Positions 2,900 to 64,000 of a stretch of 64,000 nt of DNA are shown piece after piece (position 1 is the stretch's first letter; every line of letters starts with the position of its first letter). The stretch covers positions 6,112,001 through 6,176,000 of the forward strand of contig CAVTTN010000002.1 in NCBI GenBank assembly GCA_963737655.1, in the 5' to 3' direction. This stretch comes from an uncultured Planctomycetota bacterium. GTDB lineage: Bacteria; Planctomycetota; Planctomycetia; Isosphaerales; Isosphaeraceae. A program made the position numbers and the translations under genes. The notes under the pieces were generated by a model, which ran no database searches, was not told the origin of the DNA, and saw only the letters and a list, made by a program, of their open reading frames with translations.

Positions 2900-3702
2900 A
2901 AATCATCCGATATCAGGACGCAAGCGGTCGGATCGCGCTTGGATGCCTCCATCCCGACGGCTCGACCACCCGGCTCGACGGCGACCTCCTCGGCGACTTC
3001 CGAGACACCGGCGAGCCGGCCGACGTGGCGAAGCTCCTGGCGCCGATCGTCCCGGTGGACATCCTCTGCATCGGCCTGAACTACCGCCGCCACGCCGAGG
3101 AAGGCAAGCAAGCGATCCCCGAATGGCCGGTCCTGTTCATGAAAAACATCGGCGCACTCCAGAATCCCGGCGATCCGATCGTCCTGCCCAGGCAACTCCG
3201 CAGCGATGCGGTCGATTACGAGTGCGAGCTCGCCGTGGTGATCGGCAAGGCGTGCCGGAACGTGAAAAAATCGGAGGCGCTCGCTCACGTCCTCGGCTAC
3301 ACCTGCGCCAACGACGTGAGCGCCCGGGACTGGCAGATGCAGAAGGGCGGCACGCAGTGGTGCCGGGGCAAGACGTTCGCCACCTTCGCCCCGCTCGGGC
3401 CCTGCCTCGTCACGAAGGACGAGATCCCCGATCCGAACACGCTCCAGGTCCGCACGATCTTGAATGATCAGGTGATGCAGGACTGGAACACCGACGACAT
3501 GATTTTTGATGTGCCGACTTTGATCGAATTCCTCAGCGGGAGCACCCTCCTCTTGCCGGGGACGGTGATCCTGACCGGGACGCCTCACGGGATCGGCGGG
3601 GCGAGGAAGCCGCCCGTCTTCCTCAAGGACGGCGACACGGTGACGATCGAGATCCAGGGCATCGGCAGCCTGACCAACCCGGTCGTGGCCGAGGCGGAGT
3701 GA
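2896..3702 (+). CDS. Fumarylacetoacetate hydrolase family protein
   Basis: ATGA overlap with the previous gene; 'CIGLNY', 'DYECELAVVIG', 'NDVSARD', 'GKTF', 'ILTGTP'. Confidence 0.92.
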   Translation: MKIIRYQDASGRIALGCLHPDGSTTRLDGDLLGDFRDTGEPADVAKLLAPIVPVDILCIGLNYRRHAEEGKQAIPEWPVLFMKNIGALQNPGDPIVLPRQLRSDAVDYECELAVVIGKACRNVKKSEALAHVLGYTCANDVSARDWQMQKGGTQWCRGKTFATFAPLGPCLVTKDEIPDPNTLQVRTILNDQVMQDWNTDDMIFDVPTLIEFLSGSTLLLPGTVILTGTPHGIGGARKPPVFLKDGDTVTIEIQGIGSLTNPVVAEAE

Positions 3703-3706
3703 CCCG

Positions 3707-48700: not shown

Positions 48701-51700
48701 ACCATCGCCGGCGCCGGCAACGTGATCTCGGGCAACGTCCTGGACGGCATCGACCTCCTCGGCGCCTCGGGCGAGCTGATCGTGGGCAACCGGATCGGGA
48801 CCGACGCCACCGGGACGTTCGCTTTGAGCACCAGCGGCGCGTCCGGGATCATCCTGACCGACCTCGGCTCGCCCGGCACCGGCTCGAACAACAACACCAT
48901 CGGCGGCGCCTCGCCCGGCTTCGGCAACCTGATCTCGGGCAACGGGCCGAGCGATTTCGGGATCGACATCGACGGCACCGAATCGACGGGCAACCTGATC
49001 CTGGGCAACACGATCGGCGCCAACGCCGCCGTGACCGCCGCCCTGGGCAACGGCAACGGGGTGGGATTGACCAACGGCGCGGCGGGCAACACCGTCGGCG
49101 GGACGGCCTCCGGGTCGGCCAACATCCTTTCGGGCAACATCAACTCCAACGTCCTCCTGGATGCCTCCGGGCCGAACCTGGTGGTCGGCAACCTGATCGG
49201 CTCGAACGCGACGGGGACCGCGCCCTGGATTCGACCGTCACGACCACCGCCGGCATCTTCCTCGACAATGGCTCGCAGGGCGTGACGATCGGCGGGACCG
49301 CCCCCGGCTCGGGCAACCTGATCCTGGGCAACGCCGGCCACGGCATCCTGATCCAGGGCCACAGCTCCGGCAACGGCACGCCGACCAGCGGCATCCTCGT
49401 CGAGGGGAACGTGATCGGGTCGAACCAGATCGGCTCGAAGACCCCGGGCGGCTTTTCTGGCAACGGCAACTCGGGCGTGGCGATCGCCGCCGGGGCCTCT
49501 AACAACACGATCGGCGGCTCGATCTCGGCGGCGGCCAACACGATCAACGGCAACTCCGCCGACGGCGTGAGCCTCCAGGACCCCGGCACCACGGGCAACC
49601 TGATCGCCGGAAACCTGATCGGCGTCGATCGCTCCGGGACGATGGGGATCGGCAACGTCGGCAACGGCGTGAGCGTCTTGAACGGCGCCAGCAACAACAC
49701 GATCGGCGGCCCCTCGGCCGCGTTCGGCAACACGATCGCCTTCAACTCTCTGGCGGGCGTGGCGGTCACGGGCAGCACCACCACCGGGATCTCGATCCAG
49801 TCCAATTCGATCTACTCGAACAATCGGCTGGGGATCGACCTCGGCGGGACGGGCTCGCCGTCGCCGAACCCGTCCAACGGGGCCCCGGGCTTCCCGACGA
49901 TCTCGGCGGTGGCCACGGTCAGCGGCTCGACCACGATCAGCGGGAGCCTCCGGGGCACGTCGGGCCAGACCTACACCGTCCAGTTCTTCGCGAACAAGGC
50001 GGCGGACCCCTCCGGATTCGGCCAGGGGCAGCAATTCCTCGGTCAGGCGTTCGTGACGGTCCCGAGCTCGGGGATCGGGACGTTCGTGGGGGCCCTGAGC
50101 ACGCCGATGCTCGTCGGCTCGTTCTTCACCGCGACGGCCGACCTCTCCGGGAGCACCTCGGAGTTCGCCGCGGCGGCCTCCCCGCCGATGATCCTCACGC
50201 CGTTCATCGTCACCCGGACCGACGACGGCGCGTTCGTCCCCGGCGGCCTCACGCTCCGCCAGGCGATCCAGATGGTCAACGCCAACACCCTGCCCGGGAC
50301 GCCCACGATCGGCTTCGCCATCGCCGGGGGCAACCAGGTGATCCGGCCCACGTCCCCCCTGCCTGTGATCCTCAACGCCGTGGACATCGACGGGTCCGCG
50401 CCCTCGCAGTTCCCCACCCAGACGATCACGCTCGACGGCTCGCAGGACGTCGGCGACAACGGCCTGACGTTCGTCGCCGGCGGCAACACGCTCTCGGGCC
50501 TGGCGATCGTGAACTACCATCGCGACCCGACCGTGGCGGCCACCAATAGCGGGGTCGTCCAGGGCGTGGGCGTCTTCTTGCAGGGCGGCAACACCCTGAT
50601 CCAGGGAGACTACATCGGCACCGACCGGCTCGGCACCTCCAACGAGGGGAACGAGCTGGCGGGCCTCCTCGTGTTCTCGTCGGGGAACACGATCGGAGGG
50701 ACGACGCGGGCGGCCCATAACGTGATCTCGGGCAACGGCTTCCTCCGCATCCCCAATCCCAGCCTTCCCGGCAGCGGGTTCGGCCTGGACCTCCCCTCCT
50801 CGGGCTCGACGAACAATCTCGTCATCGGCAACTTCATCGGGACGACGCCCGACGGCGAGTCCATCCTGACCAACGCGGCCGGCGGCGTGGCCGTGGAGAA
50901 CGCGACGGGCAACACGATCGGGGCGGCCCTCGGCACCGATGCGCAGGGCTTCTCGCTCGGGGCCAACCTGATCTCCGCCAACGGCGGGCCCGGCATCCTC
51001 CTGTCGAATTCCGCCACGCTCGTCCAGGGGAACCTGATCGGCACCGACGCCGCCGGCACCATGCCGCTCGGCAATCAGCTCCAGGGGATCTCGATCGCCC
51101 CGGACGACCTCGGATCGACCATCGGAGGGGCCGGCGCCGGCCAGGGGAACCGGATCGCCTTCAACGGCGACGGCGGGACCGTCTCGGGCACCGGCGCCGG
51201 GATCGGCGAGTACTTCTCCTCGCCTTCGGGCACGATCTCCTCGGCCGGCGCCTCGGCGATCATCCGGGGCAACCTGATCTACGGCAACGCCAACCTCGGG
51301 ATCGACCTGGCCAACGTCGGAGTGACCGCCAACCGGCCTCCCACGACGGTCACCGACCCCAACCGCTTCCCGAATTACCCCGTGCTGACCTCCGCCACGG
51401 TCTCCGGCGGCAACCTGATCGTCACCGGCACCTTCGACGGCACCGAGAGCACGCCCACCACGCTCGACTTCTTCACCAACGACGCGGCCGACCCCTCCGG
51501 CTTCGGCGAGGGGCAGTTCTATCGGGGGTCGATCACCTTCACGACCGACGCGAACGGCCATGCCGCCTTCACCGCGACGCTCTCCGGGACGATCGGCGCG
51601 AGCCAGGTCATCACGGCCACGGCGACGAGCTTCGCGACGTCCGAATTCAGCCAGGCGATCCCGCTCTCGACCGTCCCCCCGCCTCCGCCCCCGCCCCCGC

Positions 51701-54094
51701 CGATGTTCTCGCTCTCGCTGGCCGGCTCGCCCGAGCCGGTCGGGGTGGCCGACCTCGTCACCTACACGCTGACGGTCACCAACGTCGGCGAGGTCGCCGA
51801 GGACGTGGTCCTCGAAGAGGCGTTGCCGGTCGGGCTCGACCCGATCTCGCAAAACGGGATCGTCAATCCGCCGCCGGCCGGCTCGTCCGCCTTCTATCAG
51901 GTCGATGTCGGCGTGGTCCAGCCCGGCCAGAGCCAGACGCTGGTCGTCCAGGCGAGGCCGACCGTCGCCGGCACCTTGACCGTCTTCGCCGACGCCCGGA
52001 TCGGCACGACCGGCACGCCCACGATCGTCTCCACGTCGTTCGCGACGCACTCCATCTTCACCTTCAACGTCCTGAACAACAACGACAGCGGCTTCGGATC
52101 GCTCCGCCAGGCGATCCTCAACGCGGACGCCTCCGGGACGGCGCAGGCCATCCATTTCCAGCTCCCCTCGAACCAGCTCACCATCCAGCCGGTCACCGCC
52201 CTGCCGGAAATCACCGTGCCGATCGTGATCGACGCGACTTCCCAGGCCGGCTTCGCCGGGTCGCCCATCGTCACGCTCGACGGCTCTCAGCACGGCGCCG
52301 CCTCCCCGTTCCACGGCCTGGTGATCGACGCCGGCGCCTCGACGATCCGCGGCCTGACCATCGAGAACTTCCCCGACGACGGCATCCTCCTGAAGGGCGC
52401 GGGGGATTCCACGATCGTCGGCGACGCGATCCTCTCCAACGGCGACACCGGCGTGTTCCTCCAGGGGTCCGTCGGCAACACGATCGGCGGGACGGCCTCG
52501 GCGGATCGCAACGTGATCTCCGGGAACGCGTTCGTGGGGGTTCAGATCTCCTCCGGGTCGTCGTACAACCTGGTCCAGGGGAACTTCATCGGCCTGGATT
52601 CGACCGGCATGAAGCCCAAGGGGAACGGGCTGGACGGCGTGCTCATCAGCGCCTCGTCGAACAACACGATCGGCGGGGGGTCCCGGCGCCGGCAACGTGA
52701 TCTCGGCCAACGGCGAGGTGAACGTCCAGATCTTCCAGGGTTCGGCCTCGGGGAACGTGGTCCAGGGGAACATCATCGGGCTGGACGCGACCGGCGAGGA
52801 CGGCTTCTTCAGCGTCGCGGCGGCCTCTCGGGGCGAGAGCGACGTGGGCGTGTTCGTCAACGGGGCGCCCGGCAACTTCATCGGCGGCCCCGCGACCGGC
52901 CAGGGGAACCTCGTCTCGGGCAACGCGGCCGGGATCGAGATCTACGACTCGGGGGCGACCGGCAACCTCGTCGTCGGCAACCACGTCGGGCTGGACCAGG
53001 CCGGGACCAAGGCGATCGCCAACTCGATCGGCGTCCTCCTCTTCGGCGCCCCGGGCAACACGGTCGGCGGGACCGACCCCGGCTCGGCCAACGTGATCTC
53101 GGGCAACTCGCAGGTCGGCGTGAGGCTCGACGGCTCCGGCGCGACGAGGAACGTGGTCCTCGGCAACCTGATCGGCCTGGACCCCTCGGGCACGACGGTC
53201 GTCCGCAACCTGCTCTCGGGGATCTTCCTCAACGCGGCGCCGGGCAACACGATCGGTCCGGGCAACCGGGTCGTCGGCAGCGGGGTCTCGGGCCTCCAGA
53301 TCTCGACGCCCGGGTCCTCGGGGAACCTCGTGATCGGCAACGTCCTGGGCGTCACGGCCGACGGGACGACCCGGGGCAACGGGACGGTGGGGATCTTCCT
53401 CGACAACGTCCCGGGGACCACGATCGGGGGCCTCGGCGCCGGGCTCGGCAACCTGATCGCCGGGAACGCGGAGGTCGGCATCGAGGTCCTGGGCTCGTCG
53501 GCCACGGGCAATCTGCTCCAGGGCAACACGGTCCGGGGCAACGGCGTGGCGGGGATCGCCGTCGATACCTTCGGCGCCAACACGATCCCCCTGACCGGCA
53601 CCGGGGCGAACCTGGTGACGGGCAGCCCGGAGACGGTCCGCTACGTCCAGCCGGTGGGGCCGCAGGTCTCGGGGATGAGCGTCGGCGGAAGCTCGTCGAT
53701 CGCGACGCTCTCCCTGACGTTCAACGTACCCATGAACGCCAAGCGCGCCGGCAACCGCCGGGGCTATCGCGTGGACATCCTCAACGCCAAGGGGAAGAAG
53801 ATCGGGTCGGTGGCGATCGCCTCGGTCTCCTACGACGAGACGACCCGGACCGCGACGATCAGACTGGCGAAGGCGGTCTCGGCCTCCGGCTCGTACCGGA
53901 TCACCGCGTTCGGCACCGGCCCCCACGCGCTCCTGGACGACTCCGGCCGACGGCTCGACGGCCAGGCCAACGGCAGCTCGGGCAGCGATTACGTCGCCGG
54001 ATTCGGATCGCCGACGGCCCGCGCCGCGATCGCCCACCGCGCCATCCCCCGGGCCCGCCACTGGGCGAAACGGCTCGCGGTCAAGCGGAGGTGA
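42770..54094 (+). CDS. Giant (~3,770 aa) extracellular right-handed beta-helix repeat protein with a DUF11-like Ig domain; frameshifts near 49225 and 52680
   Basis: 'LERLEDRRLMA' export motif; four 'G.LRQAI' modules; dozens of 'TIGGT...RNVISGN..G..QGNYIGTD' repeats; 'GDTSEFS' Ig ends; 'VTYTLTVTN'. Confidence 0.85.
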
Positions 54095-54154
54095 GGTCGG
54101 GGGGCGTCCCTCGCGCCTGCGAGATCCGCGGCGGAAGCCCCCCGTCCGATCGTT

Positions 54155-55198
54155 TCAATAGGCGTCTCCGCCGACGATCTCCCCCCCGGCGACGGTCCCC
54201 AGCGCCCTCCAGACGGTCCCCTGGATCGACGACTTGACGAACCTCACCGAACCGTCTCCGAGGAGGGCGTTGACGCCTCCCGGGTGGTAACTCCGGGCGG
54301 TGATCGCGGCGAAGGTGGGGCCGCCGTCCTCCTCGTTCTTGCCGTTGAGGTCCAGGTCCATCCCCTTGTAGGAGGACCGGCCGAGGATCCGCTTGTTCGG
54401 CGGCCAGGCCGTGGTGAAGCCGGCGGCGTGGGCGTGGCCGTCGGCCCATTCGGTGTGGAACTCGTGCTGGTTCTGGGTCACGCACGCGCCGTCGTCGTAC
54501 TCCGGGGCCACGGTGAACGGGTCGGCGTCGGGGTCGGGGATCAGGTTCGGATTGTTCACCGAGGGCAAGGGGGTGTGCCGGCAGTTGGAGGCGGCCTGGT
54601 AGGTCGTCACCTCCGCCGCCACGACCGTCTGGCTCAACCCATCGACGAATTCCGAGAGCCTGCGGCTCCGGTTGGGACCGAACGCCTGGCGGTTCTCCGG
54701 CCCGTTGAACCCTCCCCAGACGAACCAGTCTCCCTGACAGAAGCCGTAATTGACCACGCCCAACGCGCCATAATCGTGCTGGGAGATCTTCGTGTTCACC
54801 TCGCTCGGGCAGAGGAACACGTTGACGTTCAGCGCGATGACCGTGGCGTTCGGCGGGTCTTCCTTGAAGACCTGCAAGTTCGCGGCGTTGAACAGGACGT
54901 TGCCCTCGACGAACGGCAGGATGCGGGCCTGGGCGCTCCATCCGGTGTTGAAGACGACCGAATTGCCGGTCCCGGAAAGGGCCATCGCCATCGGCAACGC
55001 GCCGGCGACCGCCTCGTAATTGGCCAGCGCCAGGCCGATCTGCTTGAGGTTGTTCGTGCACTGGGCCCGCCGGGCCGCCTCCCTCGCCGCCTGGACGGCC
55101 GGCAGGAGCAGCGCCACCAGGACGCCGATGATCGCGATCACGACCAGGAGCTCGATCAGCGTGAAGCCGCGACGGGCCGTCGGGTGGGAGGTCGCCAT
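54155..55198 (-). CDS. DUF1559 prepilin-type N-terminal cleavage/methylation protein
   Basis: '[47 protein letters not shown]'; '[18 protein letters not shown]'. Confidence 0.95.
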
Positions 55199-56977: not shown

Positions 56978-57189
56978 GGCACCGCCCCCTTCGTCAGGGA
57001 TGCCGGCCCCATCGCGCCGCTCTCCTGCCCGGCGACGCCTCGGCTCCGGCTATGGAGGCCAGGACGAACGCCCCGGCCTCAAAGGATTTTAACGCGAATG
57101 ATCCTCCACATGCCCAGAAAAAAGAATTTCACCGATCTCAGAATTCCGGCCCCGCGAGACCGGGCCGCGGGGAGGCCGAGGACCGGCGG

Positions 57190-58361
57190 TCACTTCCTCG
57201 CCTTCGCCCCCGACTCCGCCGCCTTCCCGAACGCGCCCGCGCCGCCCCGCCGTCGCCGGGGAACCCCGCGTGCTGGACCAGCCAGACCAGGATCAGCCCT
57301 CGGTCGCGATCGACGTGCATATCCGTCGAATACGCCCCGCCGTGGCCGAACGAATTCCCGCCGACCGACCAGCCCAGCCCGTATCCTTCTTTCACGTCCG
57401 GCCTCGTCTGCTTCTTCGTCATCTCCGCGATCGCCTCGGCCGAGACGTACCGCTTGCCGTCGAGCTCCCCGCCGTTGAGGAGCATCCTCAGGAACTTCGC
57501 CAGGTCCTCGGCCGTCGAGAACAGCCCTCCGGCCGGCATCGGCTGTCGGGAGCGGTCGTCCAGGGGGTACTTGAGCTGGCCGATGGTCGTCTCCTCCAGC
57601 CCGGCCTTCGCCGAGTCCGGCCTGTACGACTTCGCCAACCGGGCGAGCTGGTCCCCGCTCGGCCAGAACGTCGTGTCCTTCATCCCCAGGGGCTTGAACA
57701 GGCGATCGTCAAGAAATTGCTCATAGGGCATGCCCGAGACCACCTCGATGATCCGCCCGGCCGTGTTGATGCCCGCGTTCGAGTATTGATATTTCGCCCC
57801 GGGCTCGGACTGGAGCGGCGTCATCGCGTAGCTCATCGCCCCTTCGCGGAGCGTGAGGAGGTCCAGGGTGGGCCGCTCCATCGCCGAGGAGAACGGCAGG
57901 CCCGAGGTGTGGCTGAGGACCTCGCGGACGGTGATCGGGTGCGACGGCCTCTTCAGGATCACGTAATCCTTGTCGCGAGCGGCCGAGACCCAGAGGTCGC
58001 CGAACTCGGGCAGGAATTTCGCCACCGGGTCGTCCAGCTTCACCTTGCCCTCGTCCACCAGCATCATCAAGGCCGTCGCGGTGATCGGCTTGGACTGCGA
58101 GGCGATCCAGAACAGGGCGTCCCGGGGCATCGCCTTCTTCGCGGCGACGTCCGACCACCCGACCGCGTCGACGCTCACCACGCCGTCCTTGTCCGCCACG
58201 AGGGCGACGGCGCCGGCCAGGACCCCGCGATCGACGTACGGCTTCAAGGCAGACGCGACGGCTTCGGACGATTTCCGCTCCTCCTGGGCGATCGCGGGGG
58301 CCGCGACCATCCCGGCGACGAGGCAGGCCAGAAGCGTTCGGGACGAGGGGGACCGGCTCAT
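57190..58361 (-). CDS. Secreted serine hydrolase (beta-lactamase-related); frameshift near 57240 in the last helix
   Basis: 'IASQSK', 'LSHTSG', 'YSN', 'GGLFST', 'GHGGA'; the repaired C-terminus ends ..GAFGKAAESGAKARK*. Confidence 0.88.
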
Positions 58362-58573
58362 GGGCGGGACTCTCAGGGTTCCAGGGGTGATCGGCGAGTC
58401 TCGCCGAGCATGGCCGCCGGCCGCCGTCGATGCAAGGGACGCGCGGGCGCCGCGACCCCGGTCCGAGGCGGCGGATTGTCCGGCGATCGGCCCCGGTCTA
58501 TGATCGGGGCGAGGGTCGCGAGGGCGCTCGCGGCCCGATCCGGGTCGGTCGGCCGAACCTCCAGGGGCCTCGC

Positions 58574-59673
58574 ATGGCGTCTGTCCCCAGCCCGCGAAGA
58601 CGACGGATCGCCCGGGGCGTGCTCGACGGCCTGGCGGCGGTCGCGGCCCTGGCCGCCGTGGGATGTGTCGCGTTCGTCTTCCAGCCCTTCGGCCGACGGA
58701 CCTGGACGTTCGCCGCGGCCCTGGCGGCGTTCGCCTGGCTGGCCCGGGGGCTCTGCGCCGAGCCCCGGGCCCCTCGCCCGCCCGGGGGATCGGCCGGGCC
58801 CCCCGGGCGACCCTCGCGGGGGGGCTGGCCGTCTGGCTCGGCCTGATCGCCTGGGCGGCGGTCAGCCCCGGAGGGCCGATCCCCCCTCCGAAGGCCGACC
58901 CGACGGCCCTCCGCATCCTGACCTGGAACATCCTCTTCGGCTCCGACGGCGGCCCGCCCTGGGGCCGCAAGGACTGGGCCGTCCGCAAGCTCGCCCTGCG
59001 CGACGCCCTCCGCGCCACGCGGCCGGACCTCCTCTGCGTCCAGGAGGCCCTGGACGGCCAGGTCCGGTTCCTCGAAGCCGAGCTGCCCGGCCACCGCCGC
59101 GAGGGGGTCGGCCGCGACGACGGCCGATCGGCGGGCGAGCACTGCGCCATCTTCTTCGACGCCTCCCGGTTCGACCGGCTCGACGGCGGCACGTTCTGGC
59201 TGGAGGAGCCCTCCGACCGTCCTCCCGGCGGCCCGAGGCTCGGCCCCAAGAGGATCTGCACCTGGGTCCGACTCCGAGACCGGACGACCGGCCGGGCGCT
59301 CCGCCTCTACAACGCCCACCTCTACCTGACCGAGGCGGCGCAGATCCGGGCCGACCGGATCCTCCTGGCGCGGGTCGCCTCGGGAGACCCCGGGGACGAC
59401 GTGTTCCTCGCCGGGGACTTCAACGCCACGCCCGGCTCGCCGAGTCGGAACCTCCTCTCCGACTCGGGGCTCGTTCCGGCGTCTCGGCCCTCGGCCGAGG
59501 CCCCCGACGCGCCGACCTACCAGTTCTACGGCCTCCGCTGGAAGAGCCTCGACGAGATCTACGCGAGCCCGGGCTGGCGCGCCTCGGGGCGGTGGGTCGT
59601 GGACGCGAAGCCGGGGAACAGCTTCCCTTCCGACCATTTCGGCGTCCTCGCCGACCTCGTCCCCCGGCGCTGA
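58574..59673 (+). CDS. Endonuclease/exonuclease/phosphatase (EEP) family protein with N-terminal TMs; frameshift near 58790
   Basis: 'ILTWNI', 'CVQE', 'NAHL', 'GDFNA', 'SDHFGV'. Confidence 0.85.
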
Positions 59674-61531: not shown

Positions 61532-61548
61532 TCCAAGGAGAAGTTCCT

Positions 61549-61716
61549 GTAGGGTGCATGAAATGCACCGTTGTGTAGGGTGCATGAAATGCACCAAGCC
61601 CGCGGGGGTTCTCGGCCGCCTTCCTCGTCCTCGTGGGGGCCGTCTCAAGCGCAGGTTGAGGGAATCGGTAGACGGCCCTCGGCCGTCGCGATGTTGGTGC
61701 ATTGCATGCACCCGAC
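61549..61716. repeat. Cluster of GTAG-type REP elements (third family): two direct copies and one inverted copy
   Basis: GTAGGGTGCATGAAATGCACC at 61549 and 61575; inverted degenerate copy TTGGTGCATTGCATGCACCCGAC at 61694-61716. Confidence 0.8.
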
Positions 61717-62918: not shown

Positions 62919-62945
62919 AGTTCCGAAAAAAGCCGCACTGCCCCC

Positions 62946-62974
62946 TTGCATGCGTTCGGCGACACCATTAGAAG
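62946..62974 (+). promoter_or_regulatory. Putative sigma70-like promoter of ncRNA copy 1
   Basis: TTGCAT-N17-TAGAAG; hexamers and spacing are conserved in copy 2 while the spacer sequence diverges. Confidence 0.55.
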
Positions 62975-62998
62975 AGTCCTGCTCTCGACGAGAGGCAA

Positions 62999-63252
62999 GG
63001 GTCCGGGAGGACAGGTCTAGCTCGGTGCCCTGCACCGGGGCGGCGTTGCGCCGCCCGAGCGTTCGGCCGGTCATGCGTCACAACGAAGGCTGTTTCAGAC
63101 TCGCTTCTCGGGGGAATTACCCCACCGGGGCCTGCGGGTCTGGAGCAACCCCGCCGATCGGGGTTCCGCAGGCCCCGGTGGGGTAATTCCCCCGGCGAGT
63201 CCGAGAGCCTTCGATGTCCCAGGTCTTGAAGTAGAGCGGCCTCCCCGACCCC
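62999..63252 (+). ncRNA. Retron msr-msd-like ncRNA, copy 1
   Basis: Outer imperfect IR GGGTCCGGGAGG..TCTA / TAGA..CCTCCCCGACCC; candidate branch G63020; stem-loops 63023-63037 and 63038-63056; long hairpin 63084-63213 with a perfect 29-bp stem. Confidence 0.7.
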
Positions 63253-63261
63253 GATTCCGTG

Positions 63262-63296
63262 CGAGGCGGGCCGGACTCTCCCTCCGGCCCGCCTCG
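63262..63296 (+). terminator. GC-rich 14-bp hairpin downstream of ncRNA copy 1 (no U-tract; terminator or processing stem)
   Basis: CGAGGCGGGCCGGA-CTCTCCC-TCCGGCCCGCCTCG. Confidence 0.4.
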
Positions 63297-63353
63297 TCTC
63301 GGGTCGATTTTCGACGAGTCGAGATGAAGTTTGACGAAATTCGGACGGGGCCC

Positions 63354-63382
63354 TTGCATGCGTGTCCCGGCATCATTAGAAG
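63354..63382 (+). promoter_or_regulatory. Putative sigma70-like promoter of ncRNA copy 2
   Basis: TTGCAT-N17-TAGAAG, 408 bp after the first. Confidence 0.55.
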
Positions 63383-63405
63383 AGTCCTGCGCTCGACGAG
63401 AGCAA

Positions 63406-63660
63406 GGGGTCCGGGAGGAGAGGTCTAGCTCGGTGCCCTGCACCGGGGCGGCGTTGCGCCGCCCGAGCGTTCGGCCGGTCATGCGTCACAACGAAGGCTG
63501 TTTCAGACTCGCTGACCGGGGTGATCACGACCCCTACGGCGGCGGGTCTGGAGCAACCCCGCCGATCGGGGTTCCGCCGCCGTAGGGGTCGTGATCACCC
63601 CGGCGAGTCCGAGAGCCTTCGATGTCCCAGGTCTTGAAGTAGAGCGACCTCCCCGACCCC
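63406..63660 (+). ncRNA. Retron msr-msd-like ncRNA, copy 2
   Basis: Same architecture as copy 1 (offset 408 bp); candidate branch G63428; perfect 30-bp stem 63516-63545/63574-63603 with a different sequence. Confidence 0.7.
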
Positions 63661-63667
63661 GATTCGT

Positions 63668-63706
63668 CGCGGGGCGGGCCGGACTCTCCCTCCGGCCCGC
63701 CTCGCG
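63668..63706 (+). terminator. GC-rich hairpin downstream of ncRNA copy 2
   Basis: CGCGGGGCGGGCCGGA-CTCTCCC-TCCGGCCCGCCTCGCG (one G-T pair). Confidence 0.4.
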
Positions 63707-63758
63707 TCGGGTCGAACTGCCCGACACGTCTCCCGACCTTCGAGGCGAGGAACCGGCC

Positions 63759-64000
63759 GTGAGCACCTCGATCCGCCTGGACGAAGTCCGTCGGGCCCTG
63801 GAGGCGAGGGACCCGGCCCTGATCGACCTCGTCGTCGAGCTCGCCGGGTCGAGCGACCCGGAGCCCGAGACCCCGATCCGCGAGGGCGCGCCGACCTTCG
63901 CGAAATTCCTGGCCGAGACCCGCTCCCAGGACTTCCGCCGCAAGCCCCGACCCGAGCAGGGCATCGAGCGCCAGGCGAAGCTCAAGGCCCTGGAATCGCC
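63759..64000 (+). CDS. 5' part of a gene running off the window; candidate retron-associated protein
   Basis: GAGG RBS, GTG at 63759, open to the end: MSTSIRLDEVRRALEARDPALIDLVVELAGSSDPEPETPIREGAPTFAKFLAETRSQDFRRKPRPEQGIERQAKLKALES..; absent from the ORF track. Confidence 0.7.
   Translation, partial: MSTSIRLDEVRRALEARDPALIDLVVELAGSSDPEPETPIREGAPTFAKFLAETRSQDFRRKPRPEQGIERQAKLKALES

Follow-up and report, generated by a model that had tools for sequence, protein, structure and literature searches.

The window analyzed here is a 64,000-nt stretch of the genome of an uncultured Planctomycetota bacterium of the family Isosphaeraceae, and near its end lies a non-coding direct repeat with a period of 408 bp. 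We find that this repeat consists of two complete msr-msd cassettes, which head a Type XIII retron operon (Table 1). A preliminary description of the window had read the repeat as a retron non-coding RNA (ncRNA), with an a2 arm, a branching G, msr stem-loops, an msd hairpin and an a1 arm. When both units were re-inspected, the period was reproduced and every element was located where it had been placed; the layout itself is borne out by a structure that covaries across 28 relatives.

In unit 1, the outer arms pair 62999-63010 with 63240-63251, the inner 4 bp of the a2/a1 duplex are 99% paired in 28 relatives, and a hairpin of 130 nt occupies 63084-63213. The two units are 98-100% identical on the msr side, in the tip and in the 3' part. 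Their main difference is a perfect 29-bp stem, the core of which is only 52% identical; in unit 1, the AATT of this stem is flanked by G and C runs. The unit folded as RNA (z -9.5) and the msd part folded as a DNA strand (z -11.9) are each more stable than any of 200 shuffles. The promoter proposed earlier, TTGCAT-N17-TAGAAG, is present as a motif, and a related motif, TTGC-N17/18-TA(C/G/T)AA, recurs upstream of relatives' units, but a strict sigma-70 scan finds 0 sites. A strict terminator scan also finds 0 sites and does not call the downstream GC hairpins. An Rfam search of the unit returned no family at gathering score, only sub-threshold matches to miRNA hairpins, and BLASTN and a broad HMM found no unit in the genome besides these two. 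Elsewhere in the window, a REP-like palindromic 22-nt repeat occurs at 61548-61595 and 61696-61716 as two direct copies and one inverted copy, and related arms recur among the genome's 543 long inverted repeats.

Table 1. Features of the two-cassette array and adjoining gene (window coordinates), with msd pieces found in relatives
Feature	Position	Strand	Basis or remark
Unit 1 promoter-like site, TTGCAT-N17-TAGAAG	62946..62974	+	TTGCAT at 62946, TAGAAG at 62969; putative, from sequence
Unit 1 a2 arm, ends TCTA	62999..63019	+	pairs with 63232-63251
Unit 1 predicted branching G, within TAGC	63020	+	AGC invariant in 28/28 aligned units
Unit 1 msr	63021..63074	+	stem-loops 63023-63037 and 63038-63056, short closing helix
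Unit 1 variable stem, left arm (has AATT)	63109..63137	+	100% complementary to 63166-63194
Unit 1 conserved tip, 28 nt	63138..63165	+	identical in unit 2
Unit 1 variable stem, right arm	63166..63194	+	100% complementary to left arm
Unit 1 a1 arm, starts TAGA	63232..63251	+	sequence, pairing with a2
Unit 1 GC hairpin	63265..63293	+	terminator-like, without T run; similar one after most relatives' units
Predicted msDNA 1, ~165 nt	63067..63231	-	predicted from a1 boundary, RNA-end hint and 8-base overlap as in Mx162
Unit 2 promoter-like site	63354..63382	+	TTGCAT at 63354, TAGAAG at 63377; 17-nt spacer
Unit 2 msr-msd (a2, msr, msd hairpin, a1)	63407..63659	+	unit 1 layout at +408
Unit 2 predicted branching G	63428	+	
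Unit 2 variable stem, left arm	63517..63545	+	contains 8-bp palindrome GTGATCAC
Unit 2 variable stem, right arm	63574..63602	+	100% complementary to left arm
Unit 2 GC hairpin	63673..63701	+	sequence
Gene 1 start, HEAT/ARM, 1077 aa	63759..64000 (window ends inside gene)	+	PADLOC, Pfam, folds
Isolated 3' msd arm pieces in relatives	L045:2551-2607, L046:2561-2616 and 3662-3704, L047:3401-3463, L142:973-1018		

The operon starts 45 nt past unit 2 on the same strand and has the order HEAT-HEAT-SWIM-RT, called by PADLOC as HEAT-ARM_XIII, HEAT-ARM_XIII, SWIM_XIII and RT_XIII. After gene 1, and beyond the window, come a WD40-HEAT gene, a gene with clamp-like, SWIM and WGR parts, and the reverse transcriptase (RT). 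The preliminary description had proposed a search for a retron-type RT with YADD and VTG motifs past position 64,000. The RT of the adjoining operon (G000:C2:6187182, window-equivalent 75182) has YADD at 310 and NAAIH (region X) at 202, with ITG replacing VTG at 362; it matches RVT_1 above the Pfam cut-off, and its best PADLOC model among 46 families is RT_XIII (E 1.1e-159; runner-up 1.5e-95). Its start lies ~11.5 kb past unit 2, so that the ncRNA is not contiguous with the RT gene and three genes stand between them. We consider the assignment of the two units to a Type XIII (Mx162-class) retron, made via the proteins, to be well supported at the sequence level, and the units are very probably working Type XIII ncRNAs. 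Two further RTs were seen in this genome, a second retron-like one of 468 aa with YADD (L002, G000:C2:719484-720116) and a partial one of another kind (L004, G000:C2:4064750-4064977).

Type XIII (clade 10) includes Mx162, Sa163, Ne144 and Mx65 (Mestre et al. 2020, PMC7736814). As far as that account describes the type, the planctomycete system shares with it a long N-terminus on RT_XIII, a SWIM protein with the CxCx12CxH and DEDE patterns, two HEAT/ARM genes and a predicted msDNA in the size class near 162 nt. It differs from the Type XIII systems described there in having at least two cassettes per RT, which stand 11.5 kb before the RT or are scattered in trans, in its fixed-length, palindrome-rich variable stem, and in a SWIM protein whose N-terminal half models as a sliding clamp and not as a transposase.

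The accessory proteins were compared by profile and by predicted fold. The HEAT/ARM genes correspond to PADLOC PDLC02921 and PDLC02919, and in gene 1 a weak similarity to BRCT (E 7e-4) falls slightly short of the cut-off, which it exceeds in a relative. The SWIM protein (L001:13306-15174) matches the SWIM_XIII profile at E 1e-197, and both CxCx12CxH and Dx7Dx4Ex30-32Dx37E (DEDE) occur in 16 of 16 SWIM rows, with slightly widened spacings. In its AlphaFold model (pLDDT 76, 16-row alignment), residues ~50-355 adopt a PCNA-like fold (Z 14.9, rmsd 3.1 over 214; VIA, on the predicted model), residues 552-622 correspond to WGR domains (Z 8.9-11.9), and winged helix and SWIM parts are also included; the top Foldseek rows are all DNA sliding clamps (E 2.7e-7). 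The DEDE pattern, which Mestre et al. linked to transposases (PMC7736814), sits within the clamp-like part. This region of the SWIM protein is thus modeled as a clamp and not as a transposase, although a shared fold, itself predicted, does not demonstrate a function. Clamp, WGR and BRCT modules are established binders of duplex DNA or of its ends that do not discriminate by sequence, a property in keeping with a stem whose length is fixed while its sequence is free. No toxic domain was recognized in the three accessory proteins by Pfam or fold comparison, and a protein atlas search returned hypothetical and SWIM clusters only.

Two genes of the operon are irregular. The WD40-HEAT gene (L001:10385-10850) has two frameshifts when compared with G092, where the frame stays open over 2290 codons; frames are open in G093 as well. 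The RT (L001:16500 onward) does not have the stop present in relatives; these irregularities are either assembly error or decay. Within the window, the translations of ORFs 49282-54237 and 57138-59261 turn by eye from protein-like to shadow-frame-like near the end, which suggests more frameshifts in the assembly.

RNA-library contigs accumulate on the msr part; they come from relatives that are 82-100% alike, and none of the sequencing runs contains the window's strain (best share 0.08). In one run of four, pieces start with the first base past the branching G and stop 54 bases further on, and what we take to be adapter sequence flanks both ends of a relative's piece spanning the positions equivalent to 63021-63074. 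These ends match the expectation for a branched, RNase H-trimmed msr and give a weak hint of one. According to a review, TAGC is the commonest branch context and Mx162 has an 8-base overlap (PMC6868368); with the same overlap, the predicted msDNA length comes to ~165 nt.

To place the array in context, we searched 121 genomes of the window's family, where the unit was matched in 30. A 20-nt pattern occurs in 29 of the 121, 11 of them with tandem arrays of 2-3 units (a tally that counts G048, in which one unit is split across two contigs), and a second pattern gave arrays in 10 of 27 genomes. Gene 1 lies directly 3' of the ncRNA at 27 of the 30 family loci, and the exceptions consist of pieces at contig ends or a fragment. 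The operon of Singulisphaera sp. GP187 is laid out as in the window's host, and scanning the genome collection with gene 1 yielded 1 locus only.

The structure is strongly conserved in these relatives. In an alignment of 28 units, pairing holds for 96.8% of cells (35-49% in slid controls), and two-sided changes number 405 versus 116 in shuffles. The variable stem is Watson-Crick paired in 978 of 988 cells from 38 units, and its length is 29 bp in 56 of 63 units drawn from three families and metagenomes. Between units of the same array, by contrast with the msr side (identity 0.71-0.98), stem identity is 0.09-0.65 in 17 pairs, and near-identical stems are absent within all arrays compared (the same 17 pairs); the DNA upstream of the units has diverged to near random. 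In 7 genomes, several having single-unit neighbors, the units of one array form a supported sister clade, which indicates that arrays arose or were homogenized repeatedly.

Several single loci are of separate interest. Two AT-rich genomes of another class have the same operon, with one homologous ncRNA immediately 3' of the RT (L050:5464-5667, L051:5725-5944). Three members of the window's family have isolated, intergenic 45-60-nt pieces of the 3' msd arm (the msDNA 5' end) away from the operon (Table 1), recalling the partial msDNA copies reported for Nannocystis. In metagenome units L037:675-906 and L039:22-250, the stem arms disagree at 7-10 positions, as if through recombination between different cassettes or misassembly. 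In L035 (1476-1709 and 2547-2770), an inverted, indel-ridden second cassette copy lies ~840 bases upstream and is possibly an assembly artefact.

In f5, another family of the same class, we observed much larger repertoires. A two-part pattern is matched by 55 of 237 f5 genomes, of which 42 have at least 2 matches and 9 have 10-24, compared with 0-1 for the reversed control. Most copies lie dispersed along the chromosome and share one cognate RT: all 5 f5 genomes tested have a single RT at 65-70% identity, and other RTs reach ≤48%. A phylum-wide 14-nt pattern led mostly to chance matches (11 of 15 fetched places without a full unit) and exposed orphan copies in f5 genome G800, whose 10 matches represent 7 places. 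For a closer analysis, we collected all matches of 11 genomes, the G800 orphans and one locus each from others, a total of 159 distinct matches. Full-length cassettes are present at 149 of the 156 with enough flank, the first 24 bp are perfectly paired in 120 of 159 (19 cassettes with >2 mismatches were dropped from the stem set), and AGC stands at the branch site in 150 of 157. The arms differ between copies yet remain complementary, own a2/a1 arms forming a duplex of -34.7 kcal/mol versus -23.6 for swapped arms. A promoter-like motif lies upstream of 61 of 158 cassettes (2.4 in shuffles), and flanking direct repeats are no commoner than in swaps.

Gene 1 is found within ~1.5 kb at only 16 of the 159 f5 loci, and the remainder lie among ordinary genes. 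Among 140 of the 274 ORFs flanking orphan cassettes, a scan found no RT, DNA methyltransferase or restriction family, and one YhgA-like transposase. The f5 orphans are therefore intact cassettes, copyable solely in trans. The preliminary description had named a dispersed MITE with many scattered copies among the outcomes that would count against a retron. Most relatives' copies are indeed dispersed, but they are intact cassettes, and we rejected a MITE: the own genome has two copies, and relatives show no excess of direct repeats, with arms and stems differing between copies. The suggestion of several separately promoted ncRNAs per RT is strengthened by relatives, in which the pattern recurs as family arrays and as f5 repertoires with one cognate RT. 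The unit was not found in plasmids, phages gave one chance match, and viral pattern matches (17 and 1) were all chance by HMM. In G884, two cassettes of contig C23 repeat stems of other contigs (L202-L204 versus L187 and L197), which could reflect a true duplication or a redundant assembly. A second Type XIII subtype, with an RT 42-48% identical and a SWIM gene nearby, is common in the class (L083, L084, L096, L097, L101, L102); no ncRNA was found by HMM within ~16 kb of it.

In a first set of 46 non-redundant variable stems, 4-bp palindromes number 100 versus 78 expected, and 6-bp palindromes give p of about 0.05. AATT is found in 10 of these stems versus 2.4, at 8 positions, with a family-wise p of 0.003 (0.047 with stricter de-duplication); the motif set AATT/GTAC/GATC was chosen post hoc, after the sequences had been inspected. 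A new set of 114 stems, <70% alike to one another and to the first set, contains 129 6-bp palindromes versus 71 expected, 68 versus 23 of 8 bp and 33 versus 8 of 10 bp, with 46 of the 64 hexamer palindromes present. De-duplication at 70% leaves stems that still share descent, and through this kinship the p-values of palindrome enrichment overstate the significance. Odd-spaced palindromes (CCWGG, GANTC type) show no overall enrichment in the new set. The controls fall below expectation, which applies to a1, a2 and the linker within these cassettes and to 128 hairpin arms from elsewhere in the own genome. Hexamer use is uneven (ACCGGT 14 versus 3.6, GAATTC 7 versus 2.2, CCGCGG 0 versus 5.1), and the same palindromic site occurs at many stem positions. 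Two spaced motifs are also recurrent, GAANNNNTTC in 10 stems and CTCA-N4-TGAG in 4.

Within genomes, only 4 of 699 stem pairs are ≥80% identical, while 7 stem pairs are common to different genomes. Orthologous stems evolve more slowly than fourfold sites in some genera, and a faster-than-neutral test was mixed; in one genus, seemingly unrelated operon-adjacent stems are better read as cassette swapping. Restriction-type avoidance of stem motifs by the host was not seen for AATT, GATC or CCGG.

Retrons in which the msDNA stem acts as a sensor offer a frame for these observations. Retron-Sen2 is triggered by Dam methylation of the msDNA GATC, and its effector recognizes that methylated site in one set position (bioRxiv 10.64898/2026.10.13.758329); Retron-Eco1/Ec86 is triggered by Dcm (10.1101/2023.08.16.553469). 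The predicted planctomycete msDNAs resemble both, as far as these reports describe them, in a stem carrying a possible methyltransferase site; they differ in having many stems with sites at varying positions, where Sen2 and Ec86 have one ncRNA, one fixed site and other effectors. From the Dam and Dcm precedents we prefer the reading, in which we place roughly even confidence, that this is a Type XIII retron with a library of double-stranded DNA baits for site-specific DNA-modifying or DNA-binding proteins. Each unit would be transcribed independently, as the motifs suggest and the relatives' RNA contigs hint. Priming by the RT at a branching G, yielding 2'-5' linked DNA, is established retron chemistry; by homology, the single RT_XIII would prime there and copy the msd into a 2'-5' linked DNA hairpin of ~165 nt. 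In this hairpin, the base and tip are fixed and the 29-bp duplex between them has fixed length and pairing with a sequence specific to each cassette, enriched in even palindromes such as AATT/GAATTC, TGATCA and ACCGGT. The HEAT proteins and the clamp-like SWIM-WGR protein might grip the hairpin by its shape, exposing the duplex as bait. A foreign enzyme that methylates, cuts or binds the stem, for which a phage or plasmid methyltransferase, a restriction-type nuclease or a dimeric DNA-binding protein are candidates, would then switch the complex and set off defence, by analogy with Sen2/Dam and Ec86/Dcm. Extra cassettes would widen the range of watched sites, the window representing a two-cassette form of a system in which relatives carry up to about twenty, which would act in trans.

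With somewhat less confidence, we extend this reading to a sensor library that spans the genome and can be expanded. A single RT with a single clamp/HEAT complex might serve up to ~twenty independently transcribed, polylinker-like baits that together monitor most foreign palindromic sites, that is, the recognition sites of foreign methyltransferases, nucleases or repressors, with specificity changed by gain or swap of a 400-bp cassette.

Several observations are contrary to the bait reading. The palindrome signal of the window's own family is modest. The lack of enrichment of odd palindromes weighs against it, as many methyltransferase sites are odd, and fits a mutational origin equally. Palindromes of 10-16 bp exceed most restriction sites, which also counts against it, as do the host's failure to avoid AATT or GATC, the slower-than-fourfold orthologous stems in some genera, and the frameshifted WD40-HEAT gene and stopless RT. 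The many stem positions seen here are hard to square with an effector that, like that of Sen2, reads a methylated site at a fixed position.

The hairpins might instead be decoys or sponges without a suicide switch, although we think this unlikely. Multicopy hairpins would titrate dimeric DNA-binding proteins, a different one per cassette, such as incoming elements' restriction enzymes or methyltransferases, phage repressors or host regulators. The long even palindromes (8-16 bp) and the two spaced motifs resemble operator sites, the three accessory proteins have no recognized toxic domain, and the available text of Mestre et al. (PMC7736814) notes vertical inheritance of Type XIII and possible domestication. 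Pure titration leaves unexplained, however, the strict 29-bp length, the fixed tip and an 11-kb operon with BRCT-like, WGR and clamp-like domains.

A mutational origin, with neutral stem sequence, appears to us less likely still. Only length and pairing would matter, copies would provide dosage, and the palindromes would arise from U-turns of the polymerase between the arms. Such U-turns predict the observed restriction to even-centered palindromes; the two metagenome units with chimeric, mismatched stems suggest inter-copy recombination, and the similarly diverged upstream DNA in arrays agrees with neutrality. However, palindromes are depleted in the remaining paired arms of these cassettes and in those elsewhere in the genome, hexamer use departs from half-site frequency (see ACCGGT and CCGCGG above), and stems are common to different species yet almost never duplicated within a genome.

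In a further reading, which we hold to be quite improbable, the RT or the DEDE-motif SWIM protein would spread the cassettes as a non-autonomous mobile or retroposed element without benefit to the host. Copies scattered among ordinary genes, partial msd copies away from the operon in three relatives and the DEDE pattern of all 16 SWIM proteins compared would fit such spread, and the Ne160 repeats have been interpreted likewise in the review account (PMC6868368). On the other hand, the copies carry a promoter and msr, both absent from msDNA; direct repeats flanking them are not in excess; arms vary with complementarity kept; and the DEDE region is modeled as a clamp. Finally, stems serving as guides or acquired memories that pair with foreign nucleic acid can hardly be credited: fixed-length variable segments in a constant scaffold, many per genome, do resemble a spacer library, but the stems differ from sampled foreign DNA in being double-stranded throughout and rich in palindromes, neither of the two window cores has a match elsewhere in the own genome at ≤3 mismatches, and neither has an exact 20-nt match in viral contigs, a weak test because planctomycete phages are thinly sampled.

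Multi-copy retron ncRNAs have partial precedents. The preliminary description held that described retrons typically pair one ncRNA with one RT, to which Ne160 of Nannocystis is already an exception, its msr/msd repeats lying far from an RT: Retron-Nex1 of Nannocystis exedens has duplicated msr and msd with no RT within a kilobase (Lampson and Rice 1997, via PMC6868368), and the other retron of this myxobacterium is Type XIII. Ne160 resembles our system in these repeats away from the RT; unlike here, it was read as repeated insertion, and a stem library, palindromes and an in-trans repertoire do not appear in the review account. UG27 systems, in the preprint text available, have variable ncRNA arrays in which one RT system serves several units with short cDNA hairpins and no genome complementarity (bioRxiv 10.64898/2026.09.22.753630). 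They likewise have structurally conserved, sequence-diverse units served by one RT system, but involve a class 2 unknown-group RT and are mostly phage-borne, with contiguous arrays and bulged hairpins, whereas the planctomycete cassettes belong to a chromosomal retron and have a branch G, a promoter-like site per unit and perfect 29-bp stems, often dispersed. In a 2026 survey, Planctomycetota account for 26 Type XIII RTs, and the words "tandem" and "array" are absent from the survey's available text (PMC13712802). In the full-text literature, with few subscription papers, we found neither natural multi-cassette retrons whose palindromic stems vary nor any retron described as having a clamp fold. 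The window's pair of cassettes represents the small end of a recurrent multi-cassette repertoire, for which Ne160 and UG27 are the partial precedents.

The earliest msDNAs to be discovered belong to Type XIII, yet the literature searched yielded neither a study of how a Type XIII retron functions nor a function for its msDNAs. The stems make the long-open function of Mx162-class msDNA directly testable against enzymes of known specificity. If the bait reading is true, retron specificity would be modular and expandable in trans, unlike in systems with one ncRNA and one trigger, and the orphan msr/msd repeats of Nannocystis would be explained. It would also mean that RT-adjacent surveys miss most Type XIII ncRNAs, that a sliding-clamp-like fold joins the retron effectors, and that these bacteria possess a natural multiplexed RT accepting any 29-bp duplex insert.
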